Virus record (IMG/VR): IMGVR_UViG_2537561830_000004
Source of the DNA: a virus
Lineage: Duplodnaviria > Heunggongvirae > Uroviricota > Caudoviricetes
Reading direction: 5' to 3' (one strand)
DNA length: 45,751 nt
The notes beneath the pieces are model-generated. The model was given only the letters and a program-made list of their open reading frames with translations, was not told the origin of the DNA and did not search any database. Position 1 is the stretch's first letter. Each line of letters opens with the position of its first letter. Below, one piece after another: positions 1,963-44,705 of this stretch. The translations under genes and the position numbers were made by a program.

Positions 1963-4434
1963 TTAAAAATCAGCCTGATTCGGAATCAGTTTTTGCCAGA
2001 TAGCTGAAACGTATTTTGCCTGGTAACGGGCGTCATCAAGTGCATTATGGCGCTCACCTTCGAATGGAATAGCCGTTCTGGCATCGAAGTCTATGGCTTT
2101 CCCCAGCTCAACGATTGTGCGTACATCGCGATCGTTGTAGTAACGCCACGGGCAGGGGATCCCCTGCCGTTCGTATGAACGGCGCAAAATCGTGTTGTCG
2201 AAGTTGGCTCCATTTCCCCAAACCTGAACAAAAAATTCACCGGAGTTTTCGTCGATAAATTCCCGCAATTGTAACAGTGCATCATCTAACGGGATTTCAT
2301 CGGTCATAATGGCAGATTGCGCTTCGCGTGATTGCTTAAGCCACCATTTAATGGTGTCCCGATCAATGACTCCGCCAGCAGTTTCCAGATCGATAGTCTT
2401 ACTAAATTCCGGTCCCATATCTCCGGTTTGCGGATCGAAAAATATTGCACCTATTGAGATAATCGGGGCATCAGGATTTTTTCCCATGGTTTCAAGGTCG
2501 ATCATTAGATGGTCACACGTCCTACTGGCGGATGTGATTTCGTGATGACTGTTCACCTTAATTGAGTGATCTGCCGTCTCGCCAGTTTCATTATCGCTAT
2601 TGTGATGCTGATTGCCGCCAGTGTTCTTCTTGTTTGGATGTTCAGCGCCTTCCATTTCCTCCGGATCATCTTCCTGAACTTCAACCTGATACTCTTCATC
2701 GAATGTTTCCTGGTATGTTGCGTCGCCCATCACCGCGCCACAATCAGGGCAGTTGCCGCCGCCGGTCTGACCGCAGGCGGTGCAGATCTTTTCCGGTTCC
2801 TGTTGCACTACTGGTTCAGGTTGTTTCGTTTCTGGCTCGTTTTGTAACGCATTTGGGCTGTTTTGTTCCGCTTTCTGGCCGTTCTGTTCCGTTTCTTGCT
2901 GGTTCTGGTTCACAGTATCGCGGGTCTGGATCCCCTTAACCCATTTCGGATCATTCGGGTCGCTAATCCCTTCAATAAATTCACCACGTGATGCAGCAAG
3001 CAACTTATCGGCGTCAGGCTGGCTGATATTGGCTGCCTGCATAATTTTGTTTACTTCGTCAGCGGTAACTTTTACCGGTTCTGGCTGTGCGGTCGTGTCA
3101 GATGCACCAGTATTTTGTTGTGAACCTGAGTATGTACTGTTTTTGCGGGCGAAATATTCTTCTTTCGTGATTTCAGTAGCCCCGGCAGCCAGCGCCTTAT
3201 CCAGACCAGAAAGTTTGTTTGCGCGACCGTATTTTTCGCCATCCTTGTCGGTGAAGAGGAAGTAGAACGGCCCCTCACGCTCTACAGATGGTTCGACTTC
3301 CACTTTGCATTCGGTTTTTTCGTTGTCCGGAATTGCCGTTTCCACTGCATCAGTTTCTGGTACTGGCGACGAGAGAGTATCAGTTGCGCTCTGATTTGTT
3401 CCTTCATCTTCAAACACGCCCTTTGTAGTCAGGTATTCAGTAATGTATTTGTTCAGTGCCACAGGATCTTTGTGAATGTCGATCGGACGTTCACGGACAA
3501 GGCCAAAAATAGTCTGGCGGTCGTAGCGAAGGGCATCAGGCTGTTTGCGCATCGATGCCGAGATACGCTTCCAGTCTTCGCGGTCGTTGTCGATAACTTC
3601 ATTTTTTGCCCAGCGATGGATGCTGCCGTCAATGTTTCCGGCATCCACATCACCAGGCCAGAGAGCGTAGGCCAGTTCGTCATCCAGTGTTTTCCATGTC
3701 TGCTTGTATTCGCGATGAGTGGCAGCAATGACCGGGTTGATTTTTCCTGTTGAATTTTCAGTGTTCTGTTGATTGGCTCTGGCGCGGGCGAGATCAACAA
3801 CAGACGTGTATTTTCCGGTTTCCTTGCGCTCACCTTCGCGACGTTTTTTCCAGATGCGCATCTCTGCCTGAATTTCGGGCCATTTGGCACCAGGCTTACA
3901 TTTATGCTTAACCCACCCGATGGCATGCAGCTTAAGCTCCGGATACATGGCGTTAACTTCTGGCATTTTCATCAACGCTTCAACGATATGTCCGTCGAAT
4001 GCTGCCATGTCTTCCTGCAACAATTCCTGCGCGCTAATCACCATATCAACGGTGATGTTTTCACATGTGTCGAACTTAACCATGACAGCGTTCTGTACTT
4101 CAGGGGCCAGCTTGTCAAAAGTGACGTTCATCGGATCTGATTCAGTCTCAACCGGGACAAAGGAAGCTGACTCCTCATCCCAGCGGTTTTCCTGCATATA
4201 TTCAGCATCCCAGGAATCGAGGGCAGGGCGGGGTATACCGGGTTTATCCTCGCAAACAAGAAATTTATAAGCGCAGTCCTGAGCAGCCGGATAATGCTCC
4301 AGGAATTGCCAGGTAAATTTGGCACGGGCGCGGCGTTCGTCGCCAGCTTCAATGGCAGTGGCTACAGCGACTGCACCTTCTTCCTTTATTGCCTGTTCGT
4401 CCGGAATAGCGGCGCAAATAAAGACTTTACTCAT
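1963..4434 (-). CDS. large early protein with C-terminal DnaQ-like (DEDDh) 3'-5' exonuclease domain, central CxxC-CxxC zinc ribbon and acidic/Gln-rich linker
   Basis: 823 aa; C-terminus has MIDLETMG and HNALDDARYQ exonuclease motifs; CTACGQTGGGNCPDCG zinc ribbon; sits in the exo/recombination position of the leftward operon. Confidence 0.7.
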   Translation of the reverse strand: MSKVFICAAIPDEQAIKEEGAVAVATAIEAGDERRARAKFTWQFLEHYPAAQDCAYKFLVCEDKPGIPRPALDSWDAEYMQENRWDEESASFVPVETESDPMNVTFDKLAPEVQNAVMVKFDTCENITVDMVISAQELLQEDMAAFDGHIVEALMKMPEVNAMYPELKLHAIGWVKHKCKPGAKWPEIQAEMRIWKKRREGERKETGKYTSVVDLARARANQQNTENSTGKINPVIAATHREYKQTWKTLDDELAYALWPGDVDAGNIDGSIHRWAKNEVIDNDREDWKRISASMRKQPDALRYDRQTIFGLVRERPIDIHKDPVALNKYITEYLTTKGVFEDEGTNQSATDTLSSPVPETDAVETAIPDNEKTECKVEVEPSVEREGPFYFLFTDKDGEKYGRANKLSGLDKALAAGATEITKEEYFARKNSTYSGSQQNTGASDTTAQPEPVKVTADEVNKIMQAANISQPDADKLLAASRGEFIEGISDPNDPKWVKGIQTRDTVNQNQQETEQNGQKAEQNSPNALQNEPETKQPEPVVQQEPEKICTACGQTGGGNCPDCGAVMGDATYQETFDEEYQVEVQEDDPEEMEGAEHPNKKNTGGNQHHNSDNETGETADHSIKVNSHHEITSASRTCDHLMIDLETMGKNPDAPIISIGAIFFDPQTGDMGPEFSKTIDLETAGGVIDRDTIKWWLKQSREAQSAIMTDEIPLDDALLQLREFIDENSGEFFVQVWGNGANFDNTILRRSYERQGIPCPWRYYNDRDVRTIVELGKAIDFDARTAIPFEGERHNALDDARYQAKYVSAIWQKLIPNQADF

Positions 4435-5746: not shown

Positions 5747-6056
5747 TGCTTCTTGTTACGAAGCAATTTTCAAGGGGTTCTATCCGAATCCCTTTCTTTT
5801 CCATTAACAAGCCAAACCCCTTATTAATGATGTCCATTAATTCCAGGAAGTATTTTTTATGTAAATCCTGGTTATCAGAGAGTTGCTTCTCTTCGTACAG
5901 ACCGATAAAGGCACGACGCACGTTACCGGATATATTATCGATGGTTTCTTTTTCTACGGTACTCAGGTCAAGAGTCGCCAATTGAGAATGAACTATATTC
6001 GCTGCCATTTCCTGGAATGGCATTGGTAAATCTTTAAATTCCATCGTCAACCTCAT
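5715..6056 (-). CDS. hypothetical protein, second gene of leftward (PL-like) operon
   Basis: 113 aa; start ATG overlaps stop of upstream gene (TGATG coupling on minus strand); low GC. Confidence 0.4.
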   Translation of the reverse strand: MRLTMEFKDLPMPFQEMAANIVHSQLATLDLSTVEKETIDNISGNVRRAFIGLYEEKQLSDNQDLHKKYFLELMDIINKGFGLLMEKKGIRIEPLENCFVTRSINSFDSKQEN

Positions 6057-6286
6057 CAGTCAGTATTTCTGGCTAACCAGCGACGCGCGCCAGCTTCGGT
6101 TTTAAACGTTTTGCTTTTGGTATACGTCATCGCCGTGAACGTGCCGTCTTGGTTTGGAAACACGCCGTATACCAGAGACTCGTTGTTGCCAAGATCGATA
6201 GTATCCATGTTGACCTCATTTCCCCTTAACGCCGGGGTAGCGGAACAAAAACCTGCTGCATAGTTAAAGTTGAACCCTGCCGTCAT
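6056..6286 (-). CDS. hypothetical protein, first gene downstream of candidate PL promoter
   Basis: 76 aa; GAGG RBS; lies about 90 nt downstream of a predicted -35/-10 overlapped by an operator-like inverted repeat. Confidence 0.45.
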   Translation of the reverse strand: MTAGFNFNYAAGFCSATPALRGNEVNMDTIDLGNNESLVYGVFPNQDGTFTAMTYTKSKTFKTEAGARRWLARNTD

Positions 6287-6384
6287 GTTCTTACGCCTCG
6301 GGCTGGCTACTTAACCCCTGACCACTGCCTGGTAACTCGAAGTATTGCCCTGCATTCTGTAGGATGGGGTGAGGGAATGAATGA

Positions 6385-6433
6385 AGTTTAGAAAAACGAA
6401 CTTTTCAGGTCAATGTTTTTTTATCAAAACATT
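6385..6433 (-). promoter_or_regulatory. candidate PL promoter with OL operator (inverted repeat AATGTTTT-N6-AAAACATT)
   Basis: minus strand -35 TTGACC (6408-6413), 17 bp spacer, -10 TAAACT (6385-6390); perfect 8 bp-arm inverted repeat at 6412-6433 shares the GTTTT-N6-AAAAC core with repeats in the cI-cro intergenic region. Confidence 0.4.
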
Positions 6434-6497
6434 TTAAGCAGGCAGCTGTTAAGCCATCACCACGATGGCATACAGTTAATCAAATAGATGAGGTTGG

Positions 6498-7136
6498 TTA
6501 AATATCTTGTTGAATTTTAAAGCATACGCCCAATATGCAAGATAGATCATCCAGCATAATTGAAGGGTAGCGAGGATTCGTGGGGACTAAAAGAATATCC
6601 GGCCCTTCTATCTCCAGTTTACGAATGACAGGTGTTGTGGTCCCTTTGGGTAAGGCAAGGACAATATTTCCTGGTTGTACGGTTCGATCGGGATCAACAA
6701 AAACTGTTGAACCATTTGGGATGGAAACTCCCCCACCAGATGTTGACATACTGTCACTCTCTAGAACAACTGCAAAGGTATTGACCGGGATTTCTCCGAC
6801 AAGCTGCACACAAGAGGTTATTGAGGAATTTTTCATATAATCACTCCAGCTTGCTGCCTGCTGAAGTGATAGTAGCGGAACCGTTTTTATCGGCGGTAAA
6901 GATAGATCAAGCGAATCACCTGTATTTAACTCTCCTCCATTAAGAAGCCAATTTTCGTTTACTTTCAATATTTTTGCCAGTGAACTTATGTAACGCGAGG
7001 ACGGCGCTCCTCCACCGTTCATCCATTGACTTACGGAGCCTTTTGATGCGCCAGTGCCATTGACAAGGTCTTTGCCTTTCAGGTTTAGCGCATGCATACG
7101 TTGGGTTATGCGTTCAGATATAGTTTGCTTGCTCAT
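6498..7136 (-). CDS. cI: CI-like prophage repressor (N-terminal HTH, C-terminal S24 LexA-like autopeptidase)
   Basis: 212 aa; HTH GASKGSVSQWMNG; C-terminal LESDSM (Ser nucleophile) and VIRKL (Lys); divergent from cro-like gene. Confidence 0.85.
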   Translation of the reverse strand: MSKQTISERITQRMHALNLKGKDLVNGTGASKGSVSQWMNGGGAPSSRYISSLAKILKVNENWLLNGGELNTGDSLDLSLPPIKTVPLLSLQQAASWSDYMKNSSITSCVQLVGEIPVNTFAVVLESDSMSTSGGGVSIPNGSTVFVDPDRTVQPGNIVLALPKGTTTPVIRKLEIEGPDILLVPTNPRYPSIMLDDLSCILGVCFKIQQDI

Positions 7137-7198
7137 GTTTTGATTTTAAAACACAGATGGTTTTGTTTCTTGACTTTCTTTGGTTTTGATTATTAAAC
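7137..7198. promoter_or_regulatory. OR-like operator/promoter region (GTTTT-N6/7-AAAAC inverted repeats, PR -35 TTGACT)
   Basis: GTTTTGATTTTAAAAC at 7137-7152 and GTTTTGATTATTAAAC at 7183-7198; TTGACT at 7170-7175; between divergent cI and cro. Confidence 0.4.
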
Positions 7199-7227
7199 TT
7201 TTGACGTTCAGTTTTATGGAGCGACTC

Positions 7228-7458
7228 ATGAAAAAATCAGAAGTATTAGGCTATTTTGGCGGAGTTGTTAAAACAGCCGCAGCTCTTGGAACGTCAAAAA
7301 CCACAGTCAGCATGTGGGGGGAAGAGGTTCCGTGGAAATGGGCGTTGCTAATTCAGGCAGTCACTGCCGGGGCGCTCAAATATGAGTTACACATACCGAC
7401 GGTTGTCATTCCCGGTTCTGATCATAATCCGCCTTCTAACCAAGGGGGGGATTCATGA
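7228..7458 (+). CDS. cro: Cro-like HTH regulator (YdaS-like)
   Basis: GGAG RBS, ATG at 7228; 76 aa; HTH GGVVKTAAALGTSKTTVSMW; divergent from cI. Confidence 0.75.
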   Translation: MKKSEVLGYFGGVVKTAAALGTSKTTVSMWGEEVPWKWALLIQAVTAGALKYELHIPTVVIPGSDHNPPSNQGGDS

Positions 7459-7880
7459 AAATCAAGCATGAACACATCCGCATGGCGATGAATGCCTGGG
7501 CGCATCCGGACGGCGAAAAAGTACCGGCTGCGAAAATTACCAAAGCGTATTTCGAGCTGGGAATGACGTTCCCGGAACTGTATGACGACAGCCATCCGGA
7601 AGCCCTGGCTCGCAATACCCAGAAAATTTTCCGCTGGGTAGAGAAAGACACCCCTGATGCAGTTGAAAAAATTCAGGCGTTGTTACCAGCGATCGAAAAG
7701 GCAATGCCACCTTTGCTGGTGGCCAGAATGCGCAGCCACAGTTCAGCTTATTTTCGGGAGCTGGTGGAGACGCGGGAGCGACTGGTGAGAGACGCTGATG
7801 ATTTTGTCGCAGTGGCAATCGCCGGTTTCAATCAGATGAACCGTGGTGGCCCGGCAGGAAATGCTGTGGCAGTACATTGA
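7455..7880 (+). CDS. CII-analog regulator (YdaT-like, Rac/Qin-type immunity region)
   Basis: 141 aa starting MKIKHEHI, immediately after cro with start/stop overlap; family assignment from recalled similarity to E. coli YdaT. Confidence 0.6.
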   Translation: MKIKHEHIRMAMNAWAHPDGEKVPAAKITKAYFELGMTFPELYDDSHPEALARNTQKIFRWVEKDTPDAVEKIQALLPAIEKAMPPLLVARMRSHSSAYFRELVETRERLVRDADDFVAVAIAGFNQMNRGGPAGNAVAVH

Positions 7881-12105: not shown

Positions 12106-12496
12106 TGCAAAAATTTCCTGTAAAAAATAATTACATACTTAAGATACTACAAAGAATAATGCGTACGCAAAATTTTTTGTTGAGTAGAATATGTTCGCGG
12201 GGTATTTTTCGTTAAGATATAATTACCATGGTAACTTTTGCGTTGGTAATGCATTATGTGGTGGAGAAAAAGAGAGAGTCTTATCTTTAAATTATCGCCA
12301 GCCTATATGACTATATGAGTAGTATTTAGATGGGAAATTGTTGAGTTATTGAAAGGAACCATAACCTTTATGTAAAATTACTGCGGGTGCTTGAGGTTAT
12401 CTGTCTCAGGCATGCCACCAAAAGGCAGATAGAGAAAAGCCCCAGTTAACGTTACGCGTCCTGCAAGACGTTTAACATTAATCTGAGGCTCAATCT

Positions 12497-12709
12497 ATGA
12501 ACGGCAAATCTAGGTTAGCCTCTTACGTGCCGAAAGGCAAGGAGAAGCAGGCTATGAAGCAACAAAAGGCGATGTTAATCGCCCTGATCGTCATCTGTTT
12601 AACCGTCATAGTGACGGCACTGGTAACGAGGAAAGACCTCTGCGAGGTACGAATCCGAACCGGCCAGACGGAGGTCGCTGTCTTCACAGCTTACGAACCT
12701 GAGGAGTAA
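12497..12709 (+). CDS. mok-like upstream reading frame of hok-family toxin locus
   Basis: 70 codon ORF running in frame into the hok coding sequence. Confidence 0.4.
   Translation: MNGKSRLASYVPKGKEKQAMKQQKAMLIALIVICLTVIVTALVTRKDLCEVRIRTGQTEVAVFTAYEPEE
12554..12709 (+). CDS. hok: Hok/Gef family type I toxin (small membrane-depolarising peptide)
   Basis: 51 aa MKQQKAMLIALIVICLTVIVTALVTRKDLCEVRIRTGQTEVAVFTAYEPEE, close to recalled Hok; AGGAG RBS. Confidence 0.8.
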   Translation: MKQQKAMLIALIVICLTVIVTALVTRKDLCEVRIRTGQTEVAVFTAYEPEE

Positions 12710-16883: not shown

Positions 16884-16959
16884 GGCCCTTTAGCTCAGTG
16901 GTGAGAGCGAGCGACTCATAATCGCCAGGTCGCTGGTTCAAATCCAGCAAGGGCCACCA
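16884..16959 (+). tRNA. ileZ: tRNA-Ile2 (anticodon CAT), ileX/ileZ-like
   Basis: cloverleaf: acceptor GGCCCTT/AAGGGCC, loop CTCATAA, T-loop GGTTCAAATCC, 3' CCA; near-identical to recalled E. coli ileX. Confidence 0.85.
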
Positions 16960-16966
16960 TCACATA

Positions 16967-17043
16967 CCGCCATTAGCTCATCAGGATAGAGCGCCAGCCT
17001 TCGAAGCTGGTTGCGCGGGGTTCGAGTCCTCGATGGCGGTCCA
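16967..17043 (+). tRNA. tRNA-Arg (anticodon TCG)
   Basis: acceptor CCGCCAT/ATGGCGG, anticodon loop CTTCGAA, T-loop GGTTCGAGTCC, CCA encoded. Confidence 0.8.
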
Positions 17044-17056
17044 TTATCTGTACCCT

Positions 17057-17133
17057 GCGTTGTTAGCTCAGCCGGACAGAGCAATTGCCTTCTAAGCAAT
17101 CGGTCACTGGTTCGAATCCAGTACAACGCGCCA
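17057..17133 (+). tRNA. tRNA-Arg (anticodon TCT), reads AGA/AGG
   Basis: acceptor GCGTTGT/ACAACGC, anticodon loop CTTCTAA, T-loop GGTTCGAATCC, CCA encoded. Confidence 0.85.
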
Positions 17134-44121: not shown

Positions 44122-44705
44122 TGGCATTCAGAATGAGTGAACAAGCACGGACCATAAAAATTTATAATCTGCTGGCCGGAACTAATGAATTTATTGGTGA
44201 AGGTGACGCATATATTCCGCCTCATACAGGTCTGCCAGCAAACAGTACCGATATTGCACCACCAGATATTCCTGCTGGCTTTGTGGCTGTTTTCAACAGT
44301 GATGAGGCATCGTGGCATCTCGTTGAAGACCATCGGGGTAAAACGGTTTATGACGTAGCTTCCGGCGACGCGTTATTTATTTCTGAACTCGGCTTATTAC
44401 CGGAAAATGTTACCTGGTTATCGCCGGAAGGGGAGTTTCAGAAGTGGAACGGCACAGCCTGGGTGAAGGATACGGAAGCAGAAAAACTGTTCCGGATCCG
44501 GGAGGCGGAAGAAACAAAAAACAACCTGATGCAGGTAGCCAGTGAGCATATTGCGCCGCTTCAGGATGCTGCAGATCTGGAAATTGCAACGGAGGAAGAA
44601 ACCTCATTGCTGGAAGCCTGGAAAAAGTATCGGGTGTTGCTGAACCGTGTTGATACATCAACTGCACCTGATATTGAGTGGCCTACGAACCCTGTCAGGG
44701 AGTAA
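44121..44705 (+). CDS. tfa: tail fibre assembly protein Tfa
   Basis: 194 aa; ATGGCATTC start overlapping stf stop; conserved C-terminal region repeated again at 45592-45751. Confidence 0.8.

Follow-up and report, generated by a model that had tools for sequence, protein, structure and literature searches.

Genes and boundaries of the immunity module

The window, i.e. the whole stretch of 45,751 nucleotides analysed here, comes from an E. coli prophage of lambdoid (Qin/Rac-like) type, and the part treated here is its early control region. A cI repressor gene and a cro gene run divergently from start codons separated by 91 bp, with a YdaT-family cII analogue after cro, and on the far side of cI a DUF1391 gene opens a leftward operon that reaches to an 823-aa open reading frame, which we take to be recE-like (Table 1). 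The cI product, with its N-terminal helix-turn-helix (HTH) and its S24 autopeptidase domain, was recognized by Pfam as Peptidase_S24 (4e-13), with a weak match to HTH_3, and it matched lambda cI (3BDN) at 7.5e-10 and, more weakly, the N-terminal domains of the 434 and P22 c2 repressors. Three near-identical and uncharacterised phages aside, it shared at most 30% identity with any repressor in 50,697 phage records, those of P22 (c2), 21 and lambda included. Its Ser129 (in an SM motif) and Lys172 align with Ser149 and Lys192 of lambda cI, and at about residues 93-96, aligned to the Ala-Gly cleavage site of lambda, it has Ala-Ala (QQAASW), with relatives having either AG or AA at this point; having Ala-Ala in place of Ala-Gly makes the RecA inducibility of this cI uncertain. 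Cro belongs to Pfam family PF14549 (9e-16) and matched P22 Cro (1RZS) at 2e-8. The third helices of the HTH motifs of cI and Cro are near-identical, following the pattern SKxxVSxW, which fits a use of the same sites by both proteins, as in 434 and P22.

Table 1. Genes, predicted promoters and proposed operator sites of the early control region, with positions given as those of the window.
Feature	Position	Strand	Description
823-aa open reading frame	1963-4434		Leftward operon reaches to here
DUF1391 gene	6056-6286	-	76 aa as called; first gene of the leftward operon
Immunity-specific mosaic module	6372-7449		OL/PL, cI, OR/PR/PRM and cro; delimited by breaks in homology to heteroimmune phages
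PL	6385-6413	-	TTGACC (6413-6408), 17-nt spacer, TAAACT (6390-6385); promoter scan; predicted start ~6378
OL1 (newly proposed, weak)	6386-6401	-	Reads GTTCGTTTTTCTAAAC on the minus strand; over PL -10
OL2 (proposed)	6415-6430 (core)		Core GTTTTTTTATCAAAAC; perfect palindrome AATGTTTT-TTTATC-AAAACATT at 6412-6433; abuts PL -35
cI	6498-7136	-	Repressor, 212 aa; N-terminal HTH (helix 3 SKGSVSQW) and S24 autopeptidase domain
OR3 (proposed)	7137-7152		GTTTTGATTTTAAAAC, perfect GTTTT-N6-AAAAC; abuts the cI start codon
PRM -10 (candidate)	7143-7148	-	TAAAAT, 6 nt upstream of the first base of the cI start codon; putative
OR2 (newly proposed)	7160-7175		GTTTTGTTTCTTGACT; left half consensus, right half is the PR -35
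PR	7170-7199	+	TTGACT (7170-7175), 18-nt spacer, TAAACT (7194-7199); promoter scan; predicted start ~7206
OR1 (proposed)	7183-7198		GTTTTGATTATTAAAC; arm TAAAC also serves as PR -10
cro	7228-7458	+	76 aa, P22_Cro family; helix 3 SKTTVSMW; GGAG Shine-Dalgarno at 7218-7221
ydaT	7455-7880		YdaT-family cII analogue, after cro

The boundaries of the module were found by comparison with the heteroimmune phages Tritos, vB_EcoM-606R7 and Evi, with the homology ending at 6371 and returning at 7450. Since the flanks outside these two positions are common to all three phages (92-99% identity) and the part in between is unrelated, 6372-7449 can be regarded as an exchangeable module. Its content is limited to cI, cro and the two control regions, and the proposed operators, the repressor and cro are thereby inherited together. 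In the place of the module the three heteroimmune phages carry different repeats of their own, with GTTT-N8-AAAC, the core of the repeats considered below, being absent, and the repressor carried by Evi is a PaaR2 of the CP-933P type.

Directly after the cI stop codon there is a hairpin, GCCATC-N5-GATGGC (6453-6469), of which the stem is kept and the loop changed in variants of the locus having 84% identity. It was rejected as a clear terminator, having no T-run, and a clear intrinsic terminator is found in its place in distant relatives. Rfam gave no match near the immunity module; elsewhere in the window, matches at gathering score were to a sok antitoxin RNA (hok/sok-type), three tandem tRNA genes and an IS009 RNA (positions 12385-12559, 16884-17130 and 44464-44662).

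Operator-like repeats at the predicted divergent promoters

A preliminary description of this DNA had listed three inverted repeats with GTTTT and AAAAC arms, two between cI and cro and one to the left of cI. All three were found where they had been placed, with the correction that the copy at 7183-7198 has a TAAAC arm and not AAAAC (4/5), and the arms of the perfect 8 bp-arm palindrome at 6412-6433 proved to be 100% complementary. The good leftward -35/-10 pair that had been reported there was also recovered by the promoter scan, but the palindrome does not overlap it in the way described, as its core ends 1 nt short of the -35 (TTGACC, 6413-6408) and only the extended palindrome arm shares 2 nt with that hexamer. 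OR2 (7160-7175) and OL1 (6386-6401) had been overlooked, and with them we count five sites instead of three.

Perfect GTTTT-N6-AAAAC occurs only twice in the 45.7 kb, both times in the short non-coding stretches flanking cI. Allowing up to one mismatch gave 6 occurrences in the window against 2.2 expected, and the GTTT-N8-AAAC core was observed 4 times against 0.7 expected, with three of the four being sites discussed here. When every 18-mer of the OL stretch was compared with every one of the OR stretch, with no motif assumed, the best match (15/18) again fell on these sites, and the half-site common to both sides was found to be longer, GTTTTGAT/ATCAAAAC. It might be argued that such repeats are a product of chance in A/T-rich promoter DNA, or mere promoter elements (TAAACT, TTGACT), considering that the intergenic stretches are A/T-rich (56% and 69%), that two of the arms coincide with -10 hexamers and that one half of OR2 is a -35. 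We regard this as highly improbable: among 20,000 composition-preserving shuffles of the two intergenic stretches none matched the observed count of three sites at 9/10 or better (mean 0.017), the arms of OR3 and OL2 are not promoter hexamers and are yet invariant down to 39-49% protein identity, and the heteroimmune phages lack the motif in spite of having the same promoter hexamers.

On the right side the three sites start at intervals of exactly 23 bp, twice in succession, and lie over the candidate PRM -10, the PR -35 and the PR -10, with OR2 having one good half only. Phage Evi, of the CP-933P type, has the same PR hexamers in its OR. At both PR and PL the -10 TAAACT consists of the operator arm TAAAC followed by a T, and this is why OR1 and OL1 have TAAAC and not AAAAC; AGTTTAA, the reverse complement of the OR1 arm together with the -10, was invariant in 13 divergent sequences. 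The register of OL1 to the PL -10 is also that of OR1 to the PR -10. Judged from sequence, OR2 is probably an operator site, and we consider it likely that OL1 is one too; each of them has a single good half, with a conservation that is in part due to the promoter hexamers inside them. A third promoter-like match, within cro (7271-7242, minus strand), was taken as chance, with the scan giving 3 sites against 2.5 expected.

As for the expression of cI itself, no Shine-Dalgarno sequence was found ahead of its ATG. Lambda PRM has the same distance from -10 to ATG as the candidate PRM, and lambda cI is leaderless; the OR of Evi, being of the CP-933P type, likewise has GATAAT, 6 nt and ATG. Because of the lack of a Shine-Dalgarno sequence and the geometry common with Evi, the cI mRNA is by analogy probably leaderless with its start at 7136. 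In the CP-933P-type switch the repressor transcript was mapped by 5' RACE to start at the ATG, i.e. as leaderless, and the transcription start of PR933P was also mapped by 5' RACE (PMC8630535). With a start at 7136, OR3 would cover -10 to -1 of PRM. The centre of OR2 falls at about -31.5 from this putative PRM start, on a poor -35 (AAGAAA), and is thereby ~10 bp, or about one helical turn, nearer to the PRM start than is OR2 in lambda; the best PRM -35 (~7171-7166, minus strand) overlaps that of PR (7170-7175) back to back, by 2 nt. Because OR2 lies on the PRM -35, unlike in lambda, a lambda-style activation from OR2 is doubtful, and this location together with the overlap of the two -35 elements suggests that repressor synthesis may be kept up by relief of promoter competition rather than by direct contact from OR2.

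On the left side two sites could be recognized, OL2 and OL1, and not three, placed at TTGACC-17-TAAACT. When 84 loci were compared, the hexamers of PL were kept and its spacer was the most variable stretch, while the OL2 arms were invariant with the exception of L087, a variant of 84% identity in which AAAAC is changed to TAAAC; at the place of OL1 this same variant has GTTTGTTTTTCTAAAC, a perfect core. The PL spacer also has an inverted repeat with its polarity reversed, GAAAA-N6-TTTTC (6391-6406), which was rejected, as it lies within that most variable stretch. In 4 of the 84 near-identical loci the OL2 spacer has lost 1 nt from its run of seven T (6419-6425), changing N6 to N5; these were locus L086, which also has a truncated cI of 178 aa, and three viral contigs, and the deletion could reflect either prophage decay or a homopolymer sequencing error.

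Downstream of PL, the DUF1391 domain makes up residues 28-74 of the 76-aa product, and an internal ATG at 6208 with a GAGG Shine-Dalgarno sequence would give a 50-aa protein (6056-6208), so that the gene as called is probably too long. With the start at 6208 the PL leader would be ~170 nt, of which the part from 6371 leftwards is kept among the heteroimmune phages. No structured RNA was found in the leader at 6280-6380 (minus strand), which folds no better than shuffled sequences (z = +1.5).

Conservation in distant relatives and the proteins that may bind

Scanning genome contigs with the single cI protein gave no relatives, viral-contig scans gave only copies of 98-100% identity and a word-indexed protein search only matches of at least 72% identity. 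Distant relatives were reached only by HMMER, using the N-terminal domain, and by alignment-based scans of genomes and metagenomes, which yielded cI/cro modules with repressor identities of 39-49% from Symbiopectobacterium, Edwardsiella, Scandinavium, Kosakonia and environmental contigs. Every related cI gene was found to adjoin an orthologous P22-type cro. The five sites were in the same places in 18 further loci representing three deep lineages (39-49% identity between lineages), with the restriction that one of these loci (L177) has no OL region, its contig ending inside cI. The relatives have a 16-bp site abutting the repressor ATG in all cases, a half-site fused to the PR -35 (AGTCAAGAAATTAAAC) 23-24 bp off as their OR2, and an OR1 on the TAAACT -10, with 45-47 bp between OR1 and OR3. 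The good half of OR2 follows the consensus of each group, being AAAAC in the window phage and TAAAC in the relatives. Downstream of the repressor gene the relatives have two sites flanking a TTGACx -35, with OL1 being GTTTGAATAATTAAAC-type sites on the TAAACT -10 and OL2 lying upstream of the PL -35. From start to start OL2 and OL1 are 29 bp apart in the phage and its 84% variants, against 34 bp in nearly all of the distant relatives and 32-35 bp in two of them, with the OR spacing being ~23 bp everywhere.

In the alignment of 13 sequences the columns without any change were exactly those of the GTTT and AAAC cores, the ATG and TCAA in the -35, whereas the OR2-OR3 spacer and the region past OR1 varied, and also the 84%-identity variants had kept the sites and changed the spacers. 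GTTT-N8-AAAC occurred nowhere else within 1.8-3.6 kb in the genome loci L090-L094, and relatives having another recognition helix (SASAVTQW or GKSLVNQW) had different repeats. Taken together, these comparisons speak strongly for the 16-bp units being functional recognition sites that go with this family of repressor and Cro. They also change how the motif should be written, as the core kept throughout the family is GTTT-N8-AAAC and not the fixed five-base arms first described. With regards to the fifth base of the half-site, the lineages with an SKGS helix (the window phage and L090/L150) mostly have AAAAC and the lineage with SKGT has TAAAC or CAAAC, even though L090 is overall slightly nearer to the SKGT lineage (49.5% vs 45%). 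That this base follows the Ser/Thr at helix position 4 is suggestive only, and the comparative set offers a natural series in which changes of the HTH recognition helix can be followed against changes of the operator.

The reading of the repeats as operators is supported by four independent computational lines, namely the confinement to the module, the conservation in distant relatives, the position on -35 and -10 elements and the likeness of the cI and Cro helices. The earlier assignment to OR and OL sites at PR and PL is upheld by these sequence comparisons, to be extended with OR2, OL1 and PRM, which it had missed. A different question is whether only one of the regulators binds, or whether the true element is some other or larger overlapping repeat, such as a direct repeat of GTTTTGAT. 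The sites are indeed asymmetric, with GTTTTGAT being promoter-distal in all four good sites and the other half weaker, and the three copies of OR form direct repeats 23 bp apart. We find this improbable in view of the invariance of both the GTTT and the AAAC arms in relatives, the perfect 8-bp-arm palindrome of OL2 and the nearly identical recognition helices of cI and Cro, and repressors of the 434/P22 HTH class bind as symmetric dimers. In CP-933P, however, two overlapping types of repeat, inverted and pseudo-symmetric, were described and the authors left the true recognition sequence open (PMC8630535); by analogy, a similar ambiguity of recognition could also apply to the operators in the window.

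Another protein to be considered was YdaT, the cII analogue, the operator of which is TTGATT-N6-AATCAA (PMC9986795). TTGATT is present in OR3 (7140-7145) and OR1 (7186-7191), within GTTTTGATT, and the YdaT of the window is nearly identical to the characterised protein (~97% identity to PDB 3C4R, and close to 8BT1). The second half AATCAA is however absent at all five sites, related operators have GTTTAA.. and no TTGATT, and ydaT is located outside the immunity module, being common to heteroimmune phages without GTTT-N8-AAAC sites. The YdaT of CP-933P had, in addition, no effect on PR, PRM or PL (PMC8630535). It therefore seems very unlikely that the five sites are targets of YdaT rather than of cI and Cro. 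The sole nearby match to the YdaT operator with at most two mismatches, GGGATTCATGAAAATCAA at 7448-7465, lies across the cro stop and the ydaT start and is the local version of it; Tritos and Evi have a perfect TTGATTCATGAAAATCAA at the matching place, and the module junction at 7449/7450 cuts through the site, the left half of which matches at 4/6 only.

The proposed switch in relation to known systems

The repeats thus very probably constitute the OR and OL operator set of a lambda/P22-style switch used by cI and Cro. The sites, their excess over chance, their places on the predicted promoters, their confinement to the module and their deep conservation are shown by the sequences, whereas in the scheme proposed here it is inferred which protein binds, in what order the sites fill, that binding is cooperative, where transcription starts and that cI is translated without a leader. 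Dimers of cI and of Cro would recognize 16-bp pseudo-palindromes with a GTTT-N8-AAAC core, preferably in the form GTTTTGAT....AAAAC in the window phage, with contacts to the 4-5 outermost bp on either side and an A/T-rich centre left between them. OR1 would act over the -10 and OR2 over the -35 of PR, and OR3 over both the -10 and the start point of PRM, a weak promoter giving a probably leaderless cI mRNA, with OL1 acting over the PL -10 and the strong OL2 palindrome beside the PL -35. The repressor of a lysogen, bound at OR1/OR2, would keep PR off, and with it cro, ydaT and the replication genes, and bound at OL1/OL2 it would keep PL off, with the DUF1391 gene, recE and others. cI would be turned off once OR3 is filled, be it by repressor in excess or, before that, by Cro. 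The lifting of repression by SOS-induced self-cleavage through the S24 domain is a less certain step.

The layout is closest to that of P22, 21 and ES18. In these phages Cro is of the same Pfam family (PF14549), the repressor likewise has HTH and S24 domains, and there are also three OR sites, 23-25 bp apart, of which as annotated OR3 abuts the c2 ATG, OR2 overlaps the PR -35 TTGACT and OR1 is at the -10. The P22 half-site ATTTAAG is one base apart from the GTTTAAG of the relatives in the SKGT group. In contrast, the operators of P22 are of 18 bp (ATTTAAG-N4-CTTAAAT) and those of the window of 16 bp (GTTTW-N6-WAAAC), the cI of the window is only ~27% identical to P22 c2, with helix 3 being SKGSVSQW against SNVAISQW, and GTTT-N8-AAAC was not found in the loci of 21 and ES18. 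The window phage accordingly falls outside the P22 c2 operator specificity group (imm P22/21). The P22 type also has three OL sites, compared to the two recognizable here, and the window has no N/nut beside PL and has YdaT as its cII analogue.

With lambda and 434 the window has in common the divergent PR/PRM, the tripartite OR, the OL at PL and an immunity module that is swapped as a whole. Operators of 434 are also like the proposed ones in that the outer bases (ACAA) are contacted and the six A/T-rich bases at the centre are not. The operators of lambda (17 bp) and 434 (14 bp) differ from those of the window in both length and sequence, and there is, in contrast to lambda, no rexAB between cI and PL.

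The backbone, on the other hand, is closest to that of CP-933P/Sp12 (PaaR2-YdaS-YdaT; Jurenas et al. 2021, PMC8630535), with the same flanks, an identical type of YdaT and the same leader of the PL operon. The PR hexamers, the arrangement of -10, 6 nt and ATG and the presence of both OR and OL sets are also common to the two, and the half-site of CP-933P begins with GTTTA, as does that of the window. Four inverted repeats of 18 bp with the half-site GTTTAGTAA were reported for CP-933P, and binding of repressor and Cro to its OR and OL operators was shown using EMSA and footprinting (PMC8630535), whereas the operators of the window are predicted from sequence. PaaR2 is a protein of ~15 kDa without an S24 domain, in an operon with a toxin-antitoxin pair and unrelated to the cI of the window, and the two types are heteroimmune.

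The immunity specificity of the window, based on 16-bp operators, is hence an uncharacterised one, in a switch that is itself of textbook type and in its mechanism brings little surprise. A more far-reaching interpretation, which we put forward tentatively and think of as rather unlikely, would be that of a distinct specificity within an undescribed 16-bp GTTT-N8-AAAC operator family, sister to the P22 group, and, separately, that of a PRM maintained in a non-lambda-style manner. A literature search found the CP-933P, Rac and P22-type systems and no paper on this repressor or immunity type. Of 5426 complete E. coli genomes, 1058 contained the same module, those of O157:H7 and ETEC H10407 among them, so that an immunity type carried by about one in five E. 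coli genomes, i.e. a very common one, has no experimental description that we could find in the literature. The operator map, with its five sites and three promoters, could be used for predicting which co-resident prophages are homoimmune, and as the basis for reporter or de-repression constructs. It also makes control of the PL operon by the module testable, and in L086, a near-identical variant locus, that operon contains a dicB-type gene.
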